Source: Candidatus Omnitrophota bacterium
GTDB lineage: Bacteria; Omnitrophota; Gorgyraeia; Gorgyraeales; Gorgyraeaceae
DNA: 64,000 nt
Assembly (NCBI GenBank): GCA_042571405.1
Contig: JBHPHU010000003.1
Coordinates: forward strand, 3,838 to 67,837
Direction of reading: 5' to 3'
The notes beneath the pieces were generated by a model. The model was not told where the DNA came from. It saw nothing but the letters and a program-made list of their open reading frames with translations, and searched no databases. The position numbers were made by a program, and so were the translations under genes. This document shows, one piece after another, positions 3,580 to 44,544 of this stretch (position 1 is the first letter of the stretch; each line of letters starts with the position of its first letter).

Positions 3580-4148
3580 TGTTAAAAGGATCAAAGACAG
3601 AAAAAAATCTCCTGGCATCGTTTGCAGGAGAGTCACAGGCAAGGAATCGTTACACGTATTCCGCTAGTGTTGCAAAAAAGGCAGGATATGAGCAGATAGC
3701 AGCTATATTTTTAGAAACAGCTGAAAATGAGAAAGAACATGCAAAGAGGTTTTTTAAGCTACTTCAAGGCGGAGAGGTAGAAATCCAGGCATCGTATCCC
3801 GCAGGCGTAATAGGCGATACAGCGCAGAACCTTGAGGCCTCGGCAGCTGGTGAAAATATGGAGTGGACAAAGCTTTACAAAGATGCGGAAAAGGTAGCGC
3901 GCGAAGAAGGTTTTAACGAAATAGCTGATCAGTTTAAGGAGATCGCAGAGGTTGAGGAAGAACATGAAAAAAGATACAGAAAATTACTAAAGAATATCAA
4001 AGATGGCGCTGTATTTAAAAAAGAAAAGATAGTAAAATGGAAATGTCGGAATTGCGGCTATGTGCATGAAGGCAAAGAAGCGCCTGATAAATGCCCTGCA
4101 TGCGCGCACCCGCAAGCGCATTACGAAATACTCTGTGAGAATTACTAG
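3576..4148 (+). CDS. rbr: rubrerythrin (di-iron ferritin-like domain + C-terminal rubredoxin-like domain)
   Basis: ExxH motifs (EKEHAKRF, EEEHEKRY), C-terminal CRNCGYVHEG...CPACAHP. Confidence 0.9.
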   Translation: MMLKGSKTEKNLLASFAGESQARNRYTYSASVAKKAGYEQIAAIFLETAENEKEHAKRFFKLLQGGEVEIQASYPAGVIGDTAQNLEASAAGENMEWTKLYKDAEKVAREEGFNEIADQFKEIAEVEEEHEKRYRKLLKNIKDGAVFKKEKIVKWKCRNCGYVHEGKEAPDKCPACAHPQAHYEILCENY

Positions 4149-4149
4149 T

Positions 4150-4713
4150 ATGAAAGTTTTAGGCGTAAATGGCAGCCCCAGAATAGACGGCAATACAGAT
4201 ATCCTTCTGGAGAAGGTCCTTGAAGGCGCCAGGAGCAAGGGCGCCCTGACAGAAAAAATCATTCTTAACGAACTCAAATTTTCTCCGTGTCAGGAATGCG
4301 CAAATATAAAAAATAACGGCAGCTGTATTCTTGAGGATGATATGCAGAGGCTTTATGATAAGATCAAAACCACGGATGTCCTAATAATTGCCTCTCCGAT
4401 ATTTTTTGGCAGTCTGACAGCGCAGACAAAGGCGATGATAGACCGTTTTCAATGCGCGTGGCAGGCAAAATTCGTATTAAAAAAGGATATCGGATATAAA
4501 AAGATAAAAGGGGCGTTTATTTCCGTTGAAGGCACAGACAGGAAGGATTTTTTTGACAACGCGAAGTCAATAGTCAGGAATTTATTCGCTATCATTAATG
4601 TAGATTACAAGGAAGAACTTTTTTGTCCAAAGATAGATAGCAAGGGCGCGATACAGAAACACACTGATTGTTTAGAAAAGGCATTCAAATTAGGCGCGAA
4701 AATAGTTTCTTAA
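4150..4713 (+). CDS. NAD(P)H-dependent FMN reductase / iron-sulfur flavoprotein-like (flavodoxin fold)
   Basis: ORF track begins at internal ATG 4060 inside rbr; likely start ATG 4150 (MKVLGVNGSPRIDGNTD...), typical NADPH-dependent FMN reductase N-terminus; Cys motif SPCQECANIKNNGSC as in iron-sulfur flavoproteins. Confidence 0.75.
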   Translation: MKVLGVNGSPRIDGNTDILLEKVLEGARSKGALTEKIILNELKFSPCQECANIKNNGSCILEDDMQRLYDKIKTTDVLIIASPIFFGSLTAQTKAMIDRFQCAWQAKFVLKKDIGYKKIKGAFISVEGTDRKDFFDNAKSIVRNLFAIINVDYKEELFCPKIDSKGAIQKHTDCLEKAFKLGAKIVS

Positions 4714-4718
4714 AAAGA

Positions 4719-4929
4719 AACCACAGAGGGCACAGAGAAATAATATAATTTTACTCTGTGTTCTCCAAAAAATCTTTGAAGCTCAGCTATTAACTTATCT
4801 GAAAGCTGTGGATAAAAAGATAGATTTTTATTAATTTTGATGTTTTAAGGCTTAAAGAGGGAGATAAAAAGACTAATTTTGTGAGAGCACAGAGAGATTT
4901 TATTGTAAAAACTTCTGTGTTCTCTGTGG
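4719..4929. repeat. Family-A intergenic hairpin-pair element, copy 1 (CCACAGAG[G/A]GCACAGAG...CTCTGTGTTCTC twice), second hairpin followed by TTTTTT
   Basis: Two imperfect hairpins (4719-4773 and 4881-4929) closely matching 14412-14468 and 14594-14640; second hairpin + T-run looks like a rho-independent terminator; possible flanking direct repeats TTCTTAAA(A/T)AAG. Confidence 0.7.
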
Positions 4930-4972
4930 TATCTTTTTTGACAATGCGTTCTTAAATAAGGGGAGGCGGAAG

Positions 4973-5449
4973 ATGGGGAATCTTTTTTCAGGTCCTGAAG
5001 TAGTGGAAATAGGAATACAGATTGAAAAAAATGGCAAGGCCTTTTACGACGGAGTAGCAAAAATAGCAAAAAGCCAAAAGACAAAAGAGATATTTGGATT
5101 TCTTGGGGGAGAAGAAGAGAAGCACATAGAAAGATTCGAAGGTCTACTCGCGCAGGTCAAGAAATACGAACCATCTGAGGCGTATCCAGGCGAATATTTT
5201 GCCTATCTCAGGGCATTATCAGAGGGGTATGTATTTACAAAGGCAAATAAAGGCGCTGAAATTGCAAAAGGTATAACAAGCGAGAAGGATGCGATAGACG
5301 CGGGTATTGGATTTGAAAAAGACTCGATTCTTTTTTATCATGAGATGCAAAAGTTTGTCTTAGGGGGCGAACAGAAGATTATCGATAAGCTCCTTGAAGA
5401 AGAGCAGGCCCATTTAAGAAAATTGACAGAACTAAAGGAGGCTTTATGA
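4973..5449 (+). CDS. rubrerythrin-like / ferritin-like di-iron protein
   Basis: 158 aa; two ExxH motifs (EEEKHIERF, EEEQAHLRKL) typical of erythrin/ferritin-like four-helix bundle; stop overlaps grx start. Confidence 0.6.
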   Translation: MGNLFSGPEVVEIGIQIEKNGKAFYDGVAKIAKSQKTKEIFGFLGGEEEKHIERFEGLLAQVKKYEPSEAYPGEYFAYLRALSEGYVFTKANKGAEIAKGITSEKDAIDAGIGFEKDSILFYHEMQKFVLGGEQKIIDKLLEEEQAHLRKLTELKEAL

Positions 5450-12614: not shown

Positions 12615-12775
12615 ATTTGCCTATTCTGGTGAATTATGATACAATCGTCTTTGATTACATATCCCTCGACTTCACCCCGTACCCTACGTGGGACGGGGCT
12701 TTGCTCGGGATAAATTCGCACTTATCACTTATGCTCCTTTCAGTTGCGTAAGCGATGCGCTCATTTATATTATAT

Positions 12776-14398
12776 ATGAAAAAAGCTAAAATTGCAATTG
12801 CGCAAATAAATACTATTGTGGGAGATCTGGTCGGCAATACAGAGAAGATACTGTTTTGCCTGAACGAGTCAGCCAAAAAGCGCGCGGATATTGTTGTATT
12901 TCCGGAGCTTTCCATAACAGGATATCCTCCTGAAGACCTTGTCTTGAAGCCTCATTTCGTAAAAGAAAATATTAAGTGCCTGAATGTAATCGCAAGGGCC
13001 GCGAAGGATATCATAGCGATAGTCGGATTTGTGGACCAAAAGGCCAAGGACCTATATAATAGCGCCGCAGTTATAAATAATAAAAAAATAACTCATATAT
13101 ATCATAAAAGACACCTGCCGAATTATAGCGTATTTGACGAAAAAAGGTATTTTAAGCCCGGCAAAGGGAATGCTCTTATAAAGGCTAAAGGCTATTCTTT
13201 TTCACTAAATATATGCGAGGATATATGGGCTTCAGAAGATGCTAAAACAAAGAATATTCTAACACGCGCGGACTTTCTAATAAACATCTCTGCCTCGCCG
13301 TATCATATTGATAAAATAAAAGAGAGGAAGACGCTGTTGCTTGCCAAGGCCAGGAGATTCAAGACACCTGTAATTTACTGCAATCTTGTTGGCGGGCAGG
13401 ATGAGCTTGTATTCGATGGCCGCAGCGCCGTATTTGGAAAGTCCAATAAAATTATAGCAAAGGCCAAGGCCTTCGAAGAAGATTTATTGATAGTTGACCT
13501 GGCAGAAAAAAACATAGCTTCACCCAACCGCGCGATTAGAGACATGACAAGGATTGAAGAGGTCTATTCAGCGCTTGTACTGGGGCTGCGCGATTATGTA
13601 AGAAAGAATAATTTTAAAAAAGTGGCCTTTGGACTTTCAGGAGGCATAGATTCTGCATTGGTTGCTGCAGTTGCGGTGGAGGCCCTGGGTAAGGCGAATG
13701 TCTTGGCGCTTTCTATGCCGTCTAGATATTCTTCAGAAGCTACGCAGCTGGATGCCGAAAGAATTGCTAAAAATCTTGGCGTCAGGTTTGTAAAAGTCGG
13801 AATAGACAGTATCTTCGATGTATATGCTAATACACTGCAGTCTCACTTTTCTGGCATGGACCCTGATATAACAGAGGAGAATATCCAGGCAAGGATACGG
13901 GGAAACATCTTGATGGCGTTTTCAAATAAATTCGGCCACCTTGTTCTAAACACAGGCAATAAGAGCGAGACGAGTGTGGGGTACTGTACTCTATATGGAG
14001 ATATGGCAGGCGGGTTTGCGGTAATAAAAGATGTGCCTAAAAAACTTGTTTATGAATTAGCAGGATTTGTAAATAAGAAAAAAAGAATTATCCCAGATAG
14101 TGTCTTTAAGAGGCCGCCGTCAGCAGAATTGAGACCGGGGCAGAAGGATCAGGATAGCTTGCCGCCTTATGATTTAGTTGACGCGATAGTTGATTTATAT
14201 GTAGAAAAGGATAAATCCTTTAGCGATATTGTGAAGAAATTAGGGAATAAGGACGCTGTTAGAAAAGTTTTGAGCATGATTGATATGAATGAATATAAGC
14301 GCCGTCAGGCACCTCCTGGAATAAAGGTAAGTCCTCGAGCTTTTGGAAAGGACAGGCGCATGCCTATCACGAATAAATATAAGGGAGGCGGCCTATGA
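12776..14398 (+). CDS. nadE: glutamine-dependent NAD+ synthetase (CN-hydrolase + NAD synthase domains)
   Basis: 540 aa from second ATG (MKKAKIAIAQINT...); N-terminal nitrilase-like domain, C-terminal GLSGGIDSALVAAV PP-loop (SGGxDS). Confidence 0.9.
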   Translation: MKKAKIAIAQINTIVGDLVGNTEKILFCLNESAKKRADIVVFPELSITGYPPEDLVLKPHFVKENIKCLNVIARAAKDIIAIVGFVDQKAKDLYNSAAVINNKKITHIYHKRHLPNYSVFDEKRYFKPGKGNALIKAKGYSFSLNICEDIWASEDAKTKNILTRADFLINISASPYHIDKIKERKTLLLAKARRFKTPVIYCNLVGGQDELVFDGRSAVFGKSNKIIAKAKAFEEDLLIVDLAEKNIASPNRAIRDMTRIEEVYSALVLGLRDYVRKNNFKKVAFGLSGGIDSALVAAVAVEALGKANVLALSMPSRYSSEATQLDAERIAKNLGVRFVKVGIDSIFDVYANTLQSHFSGMDPDITEENIQARIRGNILMAFSNKFGHLVLNTGNKSETSVGYCTLYGDMAGGFAVIKDVPKKLVYELAGFVNKKKRIIPDSVFKRPPSAELRPGQKDQDSLPPYDLVDAIVDLYVEKDKSFSDIVKKLGNKDAVRKVLSMIDMNEYKRRQAPPGIKVSPRAFGKDRRMPITNKYKGGGL

Positions 14399-14595
14399 AA
14401 GGATTAAAAACAAACCACAGAGAACACGGAGTAATAAATAATTTTTCTCTGTGTTCTCCAAAAAAATATCCTCTAAAAGAGGTTACAGAAAAGATAATAT
14501 CCTGCTGTATAGAGGTGCATTCGAATTTAGGACCCGGATTACTGGAAAACATATATGAAGAAGCCAAAGAAGGAATAAAAAGGCTAATTTTATGA
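14395..14595 (+). pseudogene. truncated GxxExxY-family (PD-(D/E)XK-like) protein fragment embedded in Family-A element copy 2
   Basis: 66 aa; EVTEKIISCCIEVHSNLGPGLLENIYEEA matches the GxxExxY-family signature but protein is ~half normal length; ATG overlaps nadE stop. Confidence 0.5.
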
Positions 14596-14640
14596 GAACA
14601 CAGAGGATTTTGTTATAAAAAATCTCTGCGTTCTCTGTGG
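14412..14640. repeat. Family-A intergenic hairpin-pair element, copy 2, with ~19-bp flanking direct repeats CGAATAAATATAAGGGAGG
   Basis: Hairpins 14412-14468 and 14594-14640 (second followed by TTTTTTT); direct repeats at 14371-14389 (nadE 3' end) and 14659-14677 (RBS of next ORF) look like a target-site duplication. Confidence 0.7.
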
Positions 14641-14683
14641 TATTTTTTTGACAGATCCCGAATAAATATAAGGGAGGTAGTAT

Positions 14684-14965
14684 ATGAAAGACCAGACCAG
14701 CGAAGAGGTTTTTATAAACGTGGTAAAAAGAATAAATCTTTATTTGATTATATTAGGTGTGATTTTTCTTGTATATTTTATAGTTCAGACTAAAGTGAAT
14801 GTGTTTTTATTTCTACTGGCTCTCCTGAATTTAAGTTTTGCGCTTCTTTCCCACAAGCATCTTATAATAACTAATAGGCTTGCAATCGAGTTGCGACGCG
14901 CAAAAGGGTCGCTGAGTGATGTTTCAAAAGAGATGAGGGAGATACATCCGGATCTAAATGCGTAG
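14684..14965 (+). CDS. small membrane protein (2 TM), hypothetical
   Basis: 93 aa, hydrophobic core LYLIILGVIFLVYFIVQ / VFLFLLALLNLSFALL; RBS GGGAGG. Confidence 0.45.
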   Translation: MKDQTSEEVFINVVKRINLYLIILGVIFLVYFIVQTKVNVFLFLLALLNLSFALLSHKHLIITNRLAIELRRAKGSLSDVSKEMREIHPDLNA

Positions 14966-20782: not shown

Positions 20783-22342
20783 TCATATCTCAGCCTTCTT
20801 TTGCGCTCGTTTTTTCCACGCTATTCTAACCATAATACCGAGTGTCAAAAACATACCTATAAGCATGAGCCGTATGCCTAATACATACGGCTTATCCGCT
20901 TCGCTTATACCCTTCATCATTATTGTAGGAATGCCATGCTGGTAAAACCAGAATCCAAGTATACAGAATAAAAATAAAGGCGTTACGTATTTTATTATAA
21001 ATTTATAGATTTCCGGTATCTTAAGATCTGCGCCGTGATGTATTTCTTCCCATGCCTTTTCTATGCCAAACACCCAGCCAAATAAGATTGTTTCAACTGT
21101 AGCGAAAAGCACGAGACAGAATGTGCCGCCCCAGAAATCCAACTCATTTACAGCTCCATGCTTTAAGAAGAGTATAGCTGGCTGGCAGAGAATGAAAGAC
21201 ACTATTCCAAAGATGATGACAGCTTTTTTCTTTGAGATATTGAATTCATCTTCGAGAAATGCGATGCTGGGCTGCGCAAGAGACACGGAAGAAGTGATCC
21301 CTGCCAGGAATAAAAGCGTAAACCACAGGCATCCAAAAAACGCGCTAAGGGCAATCTTCTGAAATATTAAAGGCATTGTCACAAATCCGAGATTAAACGC
21401 GCCGCCAGCTGCTATAGCCTGTATCTTGTGCGGGCCAAAAAATATGTACGCGGCCGGTATTATAATGGATGAACCAAGTATGATCTCGGCAAATTCATTT
21501 GTGCTTGCAGCTGTCAGGCCTGAGAGCGCGACATCATCTGTTTTCTTAAGGTAACTCGCGTAGGTCAATATTACGCCTATGCCAACGCTGAGCGTAAAAA
21601 ATATTTGTCCGGCTGCTGCGAGCCATACCTTTGCATTTTTTAAAGAGTTAAAATCAGGATTCCATAAAAACCCAAGACCATTTACTACATTCCATTCGGG
21701 TCTTGATGGATCAGGAGTACCTAAAGTTAAAACTCTTACAGCAATTATTATGCCGAATATCAAAAGTGCGGGCATTGCGATCTTGCAGAGTTTTTCAATG
21801 CCTCCGGAAATGCCTTTATAAATAATCAGTATGTTTATGATAAAGGTGATAAGGAAGAATAGGTATGCAGACTGCATATTTGAGAAAAATTGGTTTTTCT
21901 CAATGCCCTGGAAGCCTTTGAGGAGCGACATCATGCTTTCCTGGTCAGCAAGTTGCCCGTATTTCCCAACCGCTGAAAATACAGCATAGGCAAGCGTCCA
22001 TGACGCAATGTAGTTATAGTAGATGAAGATGACAAGCGGCCCAAATATACCTATTACTCCGAAGTACTTAATAAAGCGATTTTTCTCCCACATGGTATGA
22101 AAGATACCAGGCGCAGTGCCATGGCCGAACCCTCCGCCAAACCTCCCAATAGTCCATTCTATCCACATAAGGGGAATGCCGAGCAGGAGGAGCGAGATAA
22201 AATACGGTATCATAAACGCGCCGCCGCCATTCTGCGCCGCCTGCACAGGAAACCGCAAAAAGTTCCCCAGCCCCACAGCGCTCCCGGCAACAGCCATGAT
22301 AATACCAATCCTGGATTTCCAACTATCTCGCTTCTTTCTCAT
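20783..22342 (-). CDS. sodium-dependent transporter, neurotransmitter:sodium symporter (SNF/NSS) family
   Basis: 519 aa, 11-12 TM; N-terminal [28 protein letters not shown] signature of NSS family. Confidence 0.85.
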   Translation of the reverse strand: MRKKRDSWKSRIGIIMAVAGSAVGLGNFLRFPVQAAQNGGGAFMIPYFISLLLLGIPLMWIEWTIGRFGGGFGHGTAPGIFHTMWEKNRFIKYFGVIGIFGPLVIFIYYNYIASWTLAYAVFSAVGKYGQLADQESMMSLLKGFQGIEKNQFFSNMQSAYLFFLITFIINILIIYKGISGGIEKLCKIAMPALLIFGIIIAVRVLTLGTPDPSRPEWNVVNGLGFLWNPDFNSLKNAKVWLAAAGQIFFTLSVGIGVILTYASYLKKTDDVALSGLTAASTNEFAEIILGSSIIIPAAYIFFGPHKIQAIAAGGAFNLGFVTMPLIFQKIALSAFFGCLWFTLLFLAGITSSVSLAQPSIAFLEDEFNISKKKAVIIFGIVSFILCQPAILFLKHGAVNELDFWGGTFCLVLFATVETILFGWVFGIEKAWEEIHHGADLKIPEIYKFIIKYVTPLFLFCILGFWFYQHGIPTIMMKGISEADKPYVLGIRLMLIGMFLTLGIMVRIAWKKRAQKKAEI

Positions 22343-22485
22343 ATAGAGAAAATTATACTCAATATATATAGATATGTCAAATTAAGAGCAGGATGTTTAA
22401 TAACAATTTAACAATAATTAGAGCTTGAATAGATATGTTTTTGTGATAAACTGTTGTTAATGATTGTAAAACAAAGAGGATTAAT

Positions 22486-23129: not shown

Positions 23130-23330
23130 TCAGTGATTTTGACTCGGCAGAGGAAATGGTATCATAAACGCGCCGCCGCCATTCTGCGCCGCCTGCACAG
23201 GAAACCGCAAAAAGTTCCCCAGCCCCACAGCGCTCCCGGCAACAGCCATGATAATACCAATCCTGGATTTCCACGCATCCCGCTTTTTTCTCATATAGAA
23301 AAGTATACTTGGTGGGATTTTATGTGTCAA
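23130..23330 (-). pseudogene. duplicated 5' fragment of the SNF transporter gene (first ~44 codons + upstream sequence)
   Basis: ~140 bp (approx. 23158-23297) nearly identical to approx. 22205-22342; encodes [46 protein letters not shown] then diverges; flanks the HepT/MNT cassette. Confidence 0.7.
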
Positions 23331-42311: not shown

Positions 42312-42857
42312 ATGTCAATTCAACCCGACAACTGGATCAAACGAATGGCTTTAGAATGCGACATGATAAAGCCATTCGAGCCTCAGCAGGTAAAAAATAA
42401 AAACATTTCCTACGGTCTTTCCAGCTTCGGCTATGACATAAGGATCGCTGACGAATTCAAGATTTTTAAGGGCAAAACCACGCTTGATCCAAAAAAAGTA
42501 TCTCCTGACCTATTCGAAGATTTTAAAGGCCCTGTCTGTATTATCCCGCCAACTTCTTTTGTCTTAGCGCGTTCCCTTGAATATTTCAAAATCCCAAGAA
42601 ACGTCCTTGTGCTCTCTACAGGCAAAAGCACCTATGCCAGGATCGGTGTAATAGTAAACATAACCCCATTAGAGCCGGAATGGGAAGGTTACATAACAAT
42701 AGCAATAAGCAACACTTCCTCAAACCCCGCAAAACTTTACTCAAACGAAGGCATTGCCCAGGCAGTCTTCTTCGAGTCAGCCGAAACATGCCAAACCAGC
42801 TACGCAGACCGAAAAGGCAGCTACCAAGCCCAAAAAGAAATAACCCTGCCAAAGTAG
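42312..42857 (+). CDS. dcd: dCTP deaminase
   Basis: [15 protein letters not shown]...[16 protein letters not shown]... typical Dcd; ORF-track start 42270 lies in the repeat. Confidence 0.85.
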
Positions 42858-42871
42858 TAGACCACTATTAG

Positions 42872-43558: not shown

Positions 43559-44422
43559 ATGAGTGAGCAATTTCTTAAAAAGATGTTTAATTCTACCAAA
43601 TGGCCGGTCATAAATTTTGACTTAAGAGAGATATCCCAGGAGGCACAGAAGCTGAGCGGTAAACTTTCCATTTCCGGAGTTCAGCCTAAGCTGTCCGTTA
43701 AGTTGGATAAGAAACAAAATATGTTAATCTCTGTGGCTGAAGGCGGGGAATATATTTTAAAACCGCAAACCCCTACTTTTCCTGATATCCCGGAAAACGA
43801 ACAATGTTGTATGGATATTGCCGAAGAATTAGATATAGATGTTCCGCTTCATTGTTTGATTCCTTTAAAAGATAAGAGTTTTGCTTATGTGGTCAAAAGA
43901 TTTGACCGGGAAAAAAGTGTGAAAATTCACCAGGAAGATTTTACGCAAATTCTTGAACAAGTAGATAAATATAAGGGATCGGTAGAACAAATAGGCCGAA
44001 GACTGAAAGAAATATCTTCAGCGCCGGGTTATGATGTTCAATTATTTTTTGAACGGGTTGTTCTTAGCTTTATTCTTGGCAATGGCGATGCTCATTTAAA
44101 AAATTATTCCATTTCTTATAGAGATAAAGATGATATTCGTTTGACACCCGCTTATGATATTGTATGTTCAAAATTGGTTATTCTCGACGAAGAAGACTCA
44201 GCCATAACTATTAATGGGAAAAAGAATAGATTAGAGCGAGAGGATTTCGATGAATTGGCTGAATATTTAAATATCCCTATAAAAGTTCGGTACGAAAAAT
44301 TTAGAAAGAAGTTTGACCTCATCAGAAAAATCATAAAGATTTCCAATATCGACAAGAAAAAACAACAGCAATTTCTTGAAATAATAAAAGAGAGAGTAAG
44401 CCGTTTAAGATTACCAGAATAA
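43559..44422 (+). CDS. hipT: HipT-like HipA-family Ser/Thr kinase toxin (kinase core)
   Basis: 287 aa; Gly-rich loop SISGVQPKLSV and catalytic GNGDAHLKNYS (DxHxKN) motifs of HipA kinases. Confidence 0.7.
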   Translation: MSEQFLKKMFNSTKWPVINFDLREISQEAQKLSGKLSISGVQPKLSVKLDKKQNMLISVAEGGEYILKPQTPTFPDIPENEQCCMDIAEELDIDVPLHCLIPLKDKSFAYVVKRFDREKSVKIHQEDFTQILEQVDKYKGSVEQIGRRLKEISSAPGYDVQLFFERVVLSFILGNGDAHLKNYSISYRDKDDIRLTPAYDIVCSKLVILDEEDSAITINGKKNRLEREDFDELAEYLNIPIKVRYEKFRKKFDLIRKIIKISNIDKKKQQQFLEIIKERVSRLRLPE

Positions 44423-44544
44423 GACCAAACAGAAATAACCCTGCCGAAGTAAAATAATCCAGCATGGCTTGACAAATCACCTTTTTTAGTATAAACTAGA
44501 TTAGTCTAAAATAGATTTTACTAATTATAAGGAGGGCATGGAAA

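Follow-up and report, generated by a model that had tools for sequence, protein, structure and literature searches.

The 64,000-nucleotide stretch analysed here (the window; positions 3,838 to 67,837 of contig JBHPHU010000003.1, Candidatus Omnitrophota assembly GCA_042571405.1) carries, at the 3' end of its nadE gene, a block of inverted repeats around a short GxxExxY open reading frame (ORF), and a similar block lies at a second locus. What these blocks are, how they came to sit between genes and what the GxxExxY ORF has to do with the repeats are the questions that this locus raises. An earlier reading made from the letters alone (the sequence-only reading) had described a unit of about 230 bp shared by the two loci and had taken it for a non-autonomous mobile element with a duplicated target. 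Our analysis indicates that the two loci are very probably dead, internally deleted copies of a mobile element family, similar to miniature inverted-repeat transposable elements (MITEs). GxxExxY genes that lie between inverted arrays of a heptamer motif are a very widespread and apparently undescribed kind of mobile DNA.

Two decayed element copies and their insertion sites

The two copies in the window (copy 1 and copy 2, the latter at nadE; Table 1) measure about 235–250 bp and are 79% identical overall when aligned, with near-identical ends, which bears out the shared unit proposed before. Both have the inverted ends 5'-ACCACAGAGnnCACAGAG ... CTCTGTGnnCTCTGTGGT-3' and, inside each end, a complementary arm, so that the order in each copy is a, a', ORF remnant, a, a'. 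The ends of copy 2 are common to copy 1 and to elements on other Omnitrophota contigs (L001–L003). Words resembling CACAGAGAACAC occur 11 times in the window, compared with 2.2 expected, and all 5 close matches fall within the two element loci. The word TTTTGACAACGCG at 4550 was considered as a further element end and rejected, being native coding sequence conserved in the relative L133.

At nadE, DNA alignment with three relatives (L005, L009 and L010) gave a clean gap of about 250 bp, and ATTACGAATAAATATAAGGGAGGCAGTATATGAAAGG was present once in each of these empty sites. Two exact occurrences of the 19-mer CGAATAAATATAAGGGAGG are present in the window (14370–14388 and 14659–14677), with 0.02 matches expected by chance. 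The pair of 19-bp direct repeats described by the sequence-only reading is therefore there, although its first copy had been placed one base too far downstream and the real repeat is longer and imperfect: 36 nt at 86% identity (14366–14401 and 14655–14690), including a Shine–Dalgarno (SD) sequence and ATGAAAG, for a target duplication of 36–39 bp. The last nadE codons (…ITNKYKGGGL*) fall within the upstream target copy, which gives nadE its stop and, through an ATGA overlap, gives the GxxExxY remnant its start codon. In the relatives, the 93-aa gene that follows nadE overlaps it by ATGA, starting 4 bp before the nadE stop, and the single 19-mer is simultaneously the nadE end and the ribosome-binding site of that gene, the two roles that had been assigned, correctly, to the upstream and downstream repeats. 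Comparison of the nadE 3' end with its orthologues (P0018–P0020, 87–88% identical, ending …ITNKYKGGSI* or …GGSV*) confirmed that the 19-mer is native and present once in the empty sites. Orthologues ending in the same 19-mer had been named as evidence against a duplication; however, a target duplication predicts precisely an orthologue that ends in the 19-mer and carries it once, so that this test was wrongly framed and the reading is not refuted. Five of the differences between the two nadE repeats lie in the 6 nt that separate SD from ATG (CGGCCT at 14389–14394, TAGTAT at 14678–14683), a clustering that is too strong for neutral decay. The downstream spacer resembles those of the relatives (CAGTAT, TAGTGT).

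Copy 1 is absent from L133, in which the gap between the FMN-reductase-like and rubrerythrin-like genes is 19 bp, as compared with 259 bp in the window. On the simplest reading of the sequence, the duplication at copy 1 is most likely the exact 8 bp TTCTTAAA; an imperfect duplication of 17 bp, ATAGTTTCTTAAAAAG, is possible, since the target and the left element end are similar. As relatives have empty sites at both positions, both copies are true insertions with target duplication, and in this respect the proposal of a non-autonomous mobile element was upheld. Independent sister insertions were found in another Omnitrophota population (L002 and L003), with termini GGTAA…GACAATACC and exact 8-bp flanking repeats, ATGACTAA and AACAATAA, respectively. 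This related population has at least three element copies on two contigs, and all five Omnitrophota copies lie co-oriented within operons, about 30 nt upstream of the ATG of the following gene. The third element of that population, at positions 1–470 of L003, has the same ends and a non-coding cargo in which ACTAAAT is repeated in tandem and a palindrome occurs internally; the contig terminates inside this element.

The 66-aa ORF of copy 2 had been called a truncated GxxExxY protein, and profile searches agree: it scored 32.7 bits with PF13366 (cutoff 22), covering profile positions 1–30 only, and 34.5 bits with TIGR04256 (E 2e-8), just below the cutoff of 35, and the exact sequence is named 'GxxExxY protein' at NCBI. 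The contig index that was searched contained no exact match to this protein or to the nadE product of the window. Alignment to full-length homologues showed that the remnant retains about 59 residues at the N-terminus together with the final 9 (KEGIKRLIL), with a jump after …ENIYEEA, and that the D…ExK core is gone, the invariant D67, E77 and K79 (numbering of the full-length homologue P0137) being deleted, so that the domain is incomplete. In copy 1 the corresponding ORF survives as a decayed C-terminal third in three frames, detected by tblastn at E 1e-4 with P0002 and 0.008 with P0208. P0002 itself, from L001, has a different internal deletion, and the ORFs of the window and of L001 are decay products of a longer element.

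The AlphaFold2 model of P0137 (predicted local distance difference test score 94) presents the full-length protein as a minimal PD-(D/E)XK domain. The nearest solved folds were Cas4 SSO0001, lambda exonuclease and tRNA-splicing endonuclease, all of them weak matches (E 2e-3 or worse), while a sequence search detected no PDB relative of the full-length homologue and PADLOC returned a marginal Cas4 match alone (E 0.006). The best of the structural matches, SSO0001 (4ic1; E 2e-3, TM score 0.5), shares the D…ExK core with GxxExxY, but GxxExxY proteins differ from Cas4/RecB-like nucleases in their size (about 120 aa) and in having no Fe–S cluster module and no CRISPR context. The family comprises 36,296 clusters at 50% identity (E<=1e-3). 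With a Geobacteraceae query, proteins 68–77% identical were named from Geobacter, Blastocatellia, Planctomycetota, Gemmataceae and Terriglobales, and this suggests transfer of GxxExxY proteins across phyla.

A small stand-alone PD-(D/E)XK nuclease could also belong to a homing-type selfish gene, in which the nuclease cuts empty alleles and recombinational repair copies the element in, the arrays being remnants of recognition sites or a form of protection. Such a gene would agree with near-identical proteins across phyla and with insertions that are intergenic and co-oriented with genes, as those of free-standing homing endonuclease genes are. However, homing does not duplicate its target, whereas exact 8-bp and 36–39-bp duplications flank the copies described here, and the insertion sites are unrelated genes without shared flanking homology. 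We therefore regard homing as very improbable.

Table 1. Positions in the window of the two element copies, their parts and the neighbouring genes
Feature	Positions	Strand	Remarks
nadE, glutamine-dependent NAD+ synthase	12755..14398	+	NF010588, E 1e-222
Upstream copy of duplicated target at nadE, ATCACGAATAAATATAAGGGAGGCGGCCTATGAAAGGA	14366..14403	+	From repeat alignment and empty sites L005, L009, L010
66-aa GxxExxY/PDDEXK_3 remnant	14395..14595	+	Residues 6–20 translated from left arm
Element copy 2, about 251 bp	14404..14654	+	TTAAAAACAAACC to TTTTTTTGACAG; gap of matching extent relative to L005, L009, L010
Copy 2 outer left arm, ACCACAGAGAACACGGAG	14414..14431	+	Two heptamer units, period 9
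Copy 2 inner left arm, TCTCTGTGTTCTCC	14446..14459	+	
Copy 2 inner right arm, GAGAACACAGAGG	14594..14606	+	
Copy 2 outer right arm, CTCTGCGTTCTCTGTGGT	14624..14641	+	Inverted repeat of outer left arm
Copy 2 right-end tail, ATTTTTTTGACAG	14642..14654	+	T-run then GACA(A/G); conserved in copy 1, L002, L003
Downstream copy of duplicated target at nadE	14655..14690	+	SD and ATG of 93-aa gene; ancestral-like spacer TAGTAT
93-aa membrane-like ORF	14684..14965	+	Relatives' genes at 7620-7901 in L005, 7626-7907 in L009
Left target copy at copy 1, 8 bp, TTCTTAAA	4707..4714	+	L133 empty site reads …ATGGTTTCTTAAATAAGGGGG
Element copy 1, about 234 bp	4715..4948	+	Between FMN-reductase-like gene (stop 4711-4713) and rubrerythrin-like gene (ATG 4973)
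Copy 1 outer arms	4720-4737, 4912-4930		
Copy 1 inner arms	4754-4766, 4882-4895		
Copy 1 decayed C-terminal third of GxxExxY ORF	4772..4890	+	Three frames: FEAQLLTYLKAVDKKIDF / INFDVLRLKEG / EIKRLIL*
Right target copy at copy 1, 8 bp, TTCTTAAA	4949..4956	+	

Inverted heptamer arrays around GxxExxY genes

The presence of a GxxExxY fragment in copy 2 had been taken as a hint that this protein family and the repeat are related. We selected 80 metagenomic GxxExxY loci by protein similarity alone and analysed the 72 that had enough flanking sequence. At 51 of them (71%), the inverted arms that lie 5' of the start codon and 3' of the stop codon scored above every shuffle, while arm pairs combined across loci attained that score in 10% of cases; the relationship is thus strong and general. 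The arm unit is a heptamer, CRCNRAG, repeated with a period of 8–10, most often 9, and the arrays end in ACC…GGT, often with an A-run and a T-run. Heptamers vary among loci (CACAGAG, CGCAGAG, CACGGAG, CACGAAG, CACCAAG, CGCAAAG, CACAGAT and others), yet the dominant one is the same in both arms at 23 of 35 loci, where 4.0 would be expected (at most 10 in 2000 permutations), and the concordant loci span 10 heptamer types.

Full-length GxxExxY ORFs are enclosed by arms of this kind, as in the Geobacteraceae contig L089, where the element is flanked by membrane-protein-like reading frames. Over all of the DNA fetched, inverted-array structures fell into two size groups, one of less than 200 nt and one of about 430–520 nt, and the larger group corresponds to the GxxExxY-bearing form. 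Long array pairs of over 600 bp in these loci were considered as elements with other cargo and rejected, as they were mostly separate hairpins flanking ordinary genes.

Many GxxExxY proteins in databases (among them P0151, P0277, P0284, P0294, P0301 and P0315) start with peptides such as TTEDTEVHGG, NHQDTKTLRE or TTEGTEDTEAS. Such N-termini come from translation of the 5' arm, and the annotated starts have therefore probably been placed too early; in practical terms, many database entries carry such spurious N-termini (TTEDTE…, NHQDTK…). A group of longer proteins (P0257–P0268, 265–295 aa) has two tandem GxxExxY domains and may represent read-through fusions of adjacent elements.

DNA ends, RNA stems or regulator sites

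The sequence-only reading described each copy as two hairpins, and the local hairpins are indeed stable (−18 to −20 kcal/mol each, z-scores −2.6 to −5.8). The ends of the copies are, however, terminal inverted arrays, and a nested rod of the whole element, in which outer arms pair with outer and inner with inner, folds better (−72 and −76 kcal/mol, z −6 and −8), so that the two hairpins are one of two alternative pairings. The inner left arm can thus pair in two ways, with the outer left arm in the local hairpin or with the inner right arm in the nested fold, being complementary to both. In the minimum-energy fold ACCACAGAGAACACGGAG pairs with CTCTGCGTTCTCTGTGGT, and the right-end T-run pairs with the A-run preceding the left arm, which it mirrors.

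Folding of this kind would also be expected if the arms worked at the level of the transcript, forming a stem for processing, stabilisation or termination that encloses a selfish or defence ORF, with mobility coming from elsewhere. In such an RNA-level module the purine-rich 5' arm would double as the SD and the CCUC-rich 3' arm would mask it, comparable to the RNase III-cut stems that frame ORF-bearing intervening sequences (IVSs) of 23S rRNA. In agreement with this, the single strand folds far better than shuffled sequences, by the z values just given; the co-orientation of the five Omnitrophota copies shortly before the next ATG would fit, as would a layout of A-run, stem and T-run like that of a two-way terminator; and arm units such as CACGGAGG and CACAGAGGA hold SD-like words right before many starts. 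The mismatches between arms speak otherwise. Those of the G.U type on the sense strand were not in excess over A.C mismatches (51, as against 49 on the antisense strand), giving no RNA-strand bias, and the mismatch rate was 7.5% at heptamer positions compared with 39.5% in the spacers between them (odds ratio 8, p 1e-27). What is conserved is therefore not pairing as such, and the heptamer units are conserved beyond the needs of pairing alone. Together, the absence of strand bias and the better conservation of heptamers than of spacers favour terminal inverted arrays at the DNA level over an RNA stem. A search of the window with Rfam 15 gave no match at the gathering score, and at E up to 10 the locus had chance-level matches only; the hairpins of 18 other loci likewise had no Rfam match. 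The likeness to the 23S rRNA IVSs, with their four-helix-bundle 'IVS protein', lies in a small ORF inside a long-range inverted repeat; here, by contrast, the elements sit in protein-coding operons rather than in rRNA, and the mismatch test saw no RNA-level selection on the stem.

A terminator and a promoter had also been credited to the unit. The T-run and the TTGACA that follow the right arm are present in both copies, as described, but a scan found no sigma-70-like promoter (TTGACA as -35, with a -10 hexamer 16–18 nt away) on the + strand in 14300–14750 or 4650–5020, and TTTTGACA(A/G) is part of the conserved right end of the element (copy 1, L002, L003), mirroring the A-run of the left end. 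The case for a terminator proved weak: the U-run begins 7 nt after the stem of the local right hairpin, where an intrinsic terminator would have it within 0–2 nt of a GC-rich stem, only the long-range outer stem abuts it, and no intrinsic terminator was called by the scan on the + strand at the element copies. On this evidence, an RNA-level module is an improbable explanation.

Repeats of the same kind have been described before with a different interpretation. In Geobacter metallireducens, 21 intergenic pairs of three tandem TCTCCGTS[Y] units, on opposite strands and at variable distance, were called 'Class 2 predicted global regulator binding sites' and read as putative sites for integration host factor (IHF) or HU, and no link to GxxExxY genes, insertion polymorphism, mobility or other phyla was drawn for them (Aklujkar et al. 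2009; PMC2700814). TCTCCGTS[Y] is the reverse complement of the CACGGAGA unit of the arrays studied here, and by this published repeat unit alone we take the Geobacter pairs to be the same kind of arm. If the arrays bound a global regulator or nucleoid protein of the host, the GxxExxY genes would merely lie between such sites, and the heptamers would be conserved as units, as they are. On the other hand, the arrays arrive together with the ORF as a target-duplicating insertion and are absent from the orthologous loci of relatives; the heptamer changes between elements and phyla yet matches within an element, unlike what one host protein would be expected to require; and no counterpart in G. 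sulfurreducens is listed in that work (PMC2700814). It is hardly credible, then, that host regulatory sites account for the arrays.

Proposed element, its spread and its likeness to known systems

Terminal arrays of a mobile element thus remain the reading that we develop here. The intact form consists of a gene for a minimal PD-(D/E)XK nuclease of about 120 aa (GxxExxY, the Pfam family PDDEXK_3) between terminal inverted arrays with a period of about 9 bp, the 5' array reading A-run, ACC and (CRCNRAG nn) repeated, and the 3' array (nn CTNYGYG) repeated, GGT and T-run. The whole unit, arms and ORF, entered two operon junctions after this Omnitrophota lineage split from relatives whose junctions are uninterrupted, duplicating the target each time. 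As the nadE duplication copied SD and ATG, nadE was left with a stop, the ORF of the element acquired a start coupled through ATGA, and the gene downstream still had an SD and start codon of its own. The catalytic core was lost later from both ORFs, which leaves the present copies as inert passengers. We infer that the heptamer arrays are end sites at the DNA level, recognised as repeated units and acted on by the nuclease of the element or by another factor in trans, and this nuclease may be what moves the element; ORF-less hairpins of like build in many phyla would be its non-autonomous derivatives.

One genome per species was scanned for ACCACAGAGNNCACRGAR, which gave at least 120 loci; by our own estimate, about a thousand single matches would be expected by chance across 596 Gb. 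Among the matches listed were Acidobacteriota, Planctomycetota, Verrucomicrobiota, Chloroflexota, Bacteroidota, Thermodesulfobacteriota, Nitrospirae, cyanobacteria, several proteobacterial classes and one archaeon. Complete ORF-less hairpins, with strict left and right termini within 35–270 nt, were present in 42 of the 120 matches listed, and stand-alone intergenic examples among L013–L132 include L107 (1774–1901), L111 (4055–4137) and L127 (3703–3786). The arms of these hairpins have 2–4 tandem CACAGAG units that recur about every 9 nt, with ACC…GGT and an A-run and T-run as caps. At about 3550–3850 of L043, the loop of a CACAGAG hairpin contains a different GC-rich palindromic repeat (…CCCCGGCGAAAGCCGGGG…), so that repeats are nested in repeats.

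On this basis we tentatively propose, while considering it somewhat doubtful as a whole, that GxxExxY/PDDEXK_3 proteins may be the end-recognising nucleases of an unrecognised, cross-phylum superfamily of prokaryotic foldback-type transposons with tens of thousands of protein clusters; that the ORF-less derivatives may be the intergenic hairpins with a 9-nt period found in Acidobacteriota, Planctomycetota, Thermodesulfobacteriota, Chloroflexota, Bacteroidota, cyanobacteria and others; and that all units of both arms may be kept identical by a copying step during movement, one arm templating the other. A heptamer switch, CACAGAG to CACGGAG, between proteins 89% identical indicates that all units of both arms change together, in concerted evolution.

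Several points weigh against the reading of a mobile element moved by its own nuclease. A PD-(D/E)XK enzyme hydrolyses DNA but has no strand-joining activity by itself, and for the GxxExxY protein the binding or cutting of arrays and the mobilisation of the element are putative roles. The duplication length is not constant, being 8, 8 and 8 (or 17) bp at three insertions and 36–39 bp at nadE, and the nadE duplication is odd in its clustered differences as well. Flanking direct repeats around the 51 metagenomic elements showed no enrichment over controls, by local alignment or by longest common substring, so that we claim target duplication for the Omnitrophota subfamily, the only one in which it is documented, and not for the family as a whole. 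The association between heptamer type and protein similarity was weak (58.6% compared with 54.6% identity), and this, together with such switches, gives no sign of a co-evolving protein–DNA code. A minority of loci, L098, L145 and about 6 of the 72, have a permuted arm order, which may reflect tandem elements or a circular intermediate. Finally, in a single case found with an approximate query (L203), an array hairpin of tandem TTGTTAAT-type units (300–390) follows a gene for a four-helix-bundle, '23S rRNA IVS protein'-like product (54–284); with an array hairpin beside such an unrelated gene, the ORF could be cargo, and the array chassis may carry other small ORF families.

In the permuted loci (L098, 4300–4790; L145, 1780–2300; also L163, L169, L196, L201 and L210), the arm upstream of the GxxExxY ORF is the pyrimidine one, which ends in GGT, and the downstream arm is the purine one, headed by ACC; in L145 the permuted arms belong to complete hairpins on either side.

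Of the systems described to date, MITEs (Correia/NEMIS, RUP, ERIC) resemble the copies in the window in being small and intergenic, with terminal inverted repeats, target duplication and no working enzyme gene, and in having relatives with a full ORF between ends of the same kind. The present elements differ in that their ends are arrays of 7-nt units with a period of about 9 bp, the full-length ORF codes for a 120-aa PD-(D/E)XK protein and not a DDE transposase, and the duplication varies from 8 bp to 36–39 bp instead of having a constant length. Repetitive extragenic palindromes (REPs), the REPINs that they form and the associated RAYT genes likewise combine a small nuclease gene between inverted copies of a short hairpin repeat with many dispersed, intergenic ORF-less hairpins. 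RAYTs are HUH/Y1 enzymes of the IS200/IS605 kind, usually single-copy, with GTAG-headed REPs, whereas the elements described here encode a PD-(D/E)XK protein, are multi-copy, have their own arms at each copy and show target duplications, and their arms start with ACC, without GTAG; they do not belong to that group. With the foldback (FB) transposons of eukaryotes they share long terminal inverted repeats made of tandem short subrepeats, a variable interior and many ORF-less copies, a likeness of architecture only. FB elements are eukaryotic and much larger, with a different or unknown transposase. Full-text searches of the literature found no description of a GxxExxY/PDDEXK_3 element or of its arm architecture, and a survey of the PD-(D/E)XK superfamily gives PDDEXK_3 as 'unknown'.

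The association described here places GxxExxY/PDDEXK_3, a very large family whose function is unknown, in a concrete biological context, that of a mobile element, and offers an origin for intergenic hairpins earlier annotated as regulator-binding sites. If the nuclease does act on the arrays, small prokaryotic transposons would gain a new class of mechanism. There is also a practical side for metagenomics: many GxxExxY homologues are on contigs of about 1 kb and one contig ends inside an element, which suggests that the repeats of the element break metagenome assemblies.

The window contains other repeats in addition to the two element copies. A direct repeat of 145 nt at 96% identity lies at 22206–22350 and 23158–23302, 952 bp apart. 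A segment of 31–55 nt occurs three times with a spacing of about 1.5 kb (42804–42858, 44421–44451 and 45930–45984), probably in paralogous genes. An AT-rich repeat of 36 nt at 92% identity is found about 3 kb apart (46079–46114 and 49146–49181) and possibly reflects shared upstream regions.

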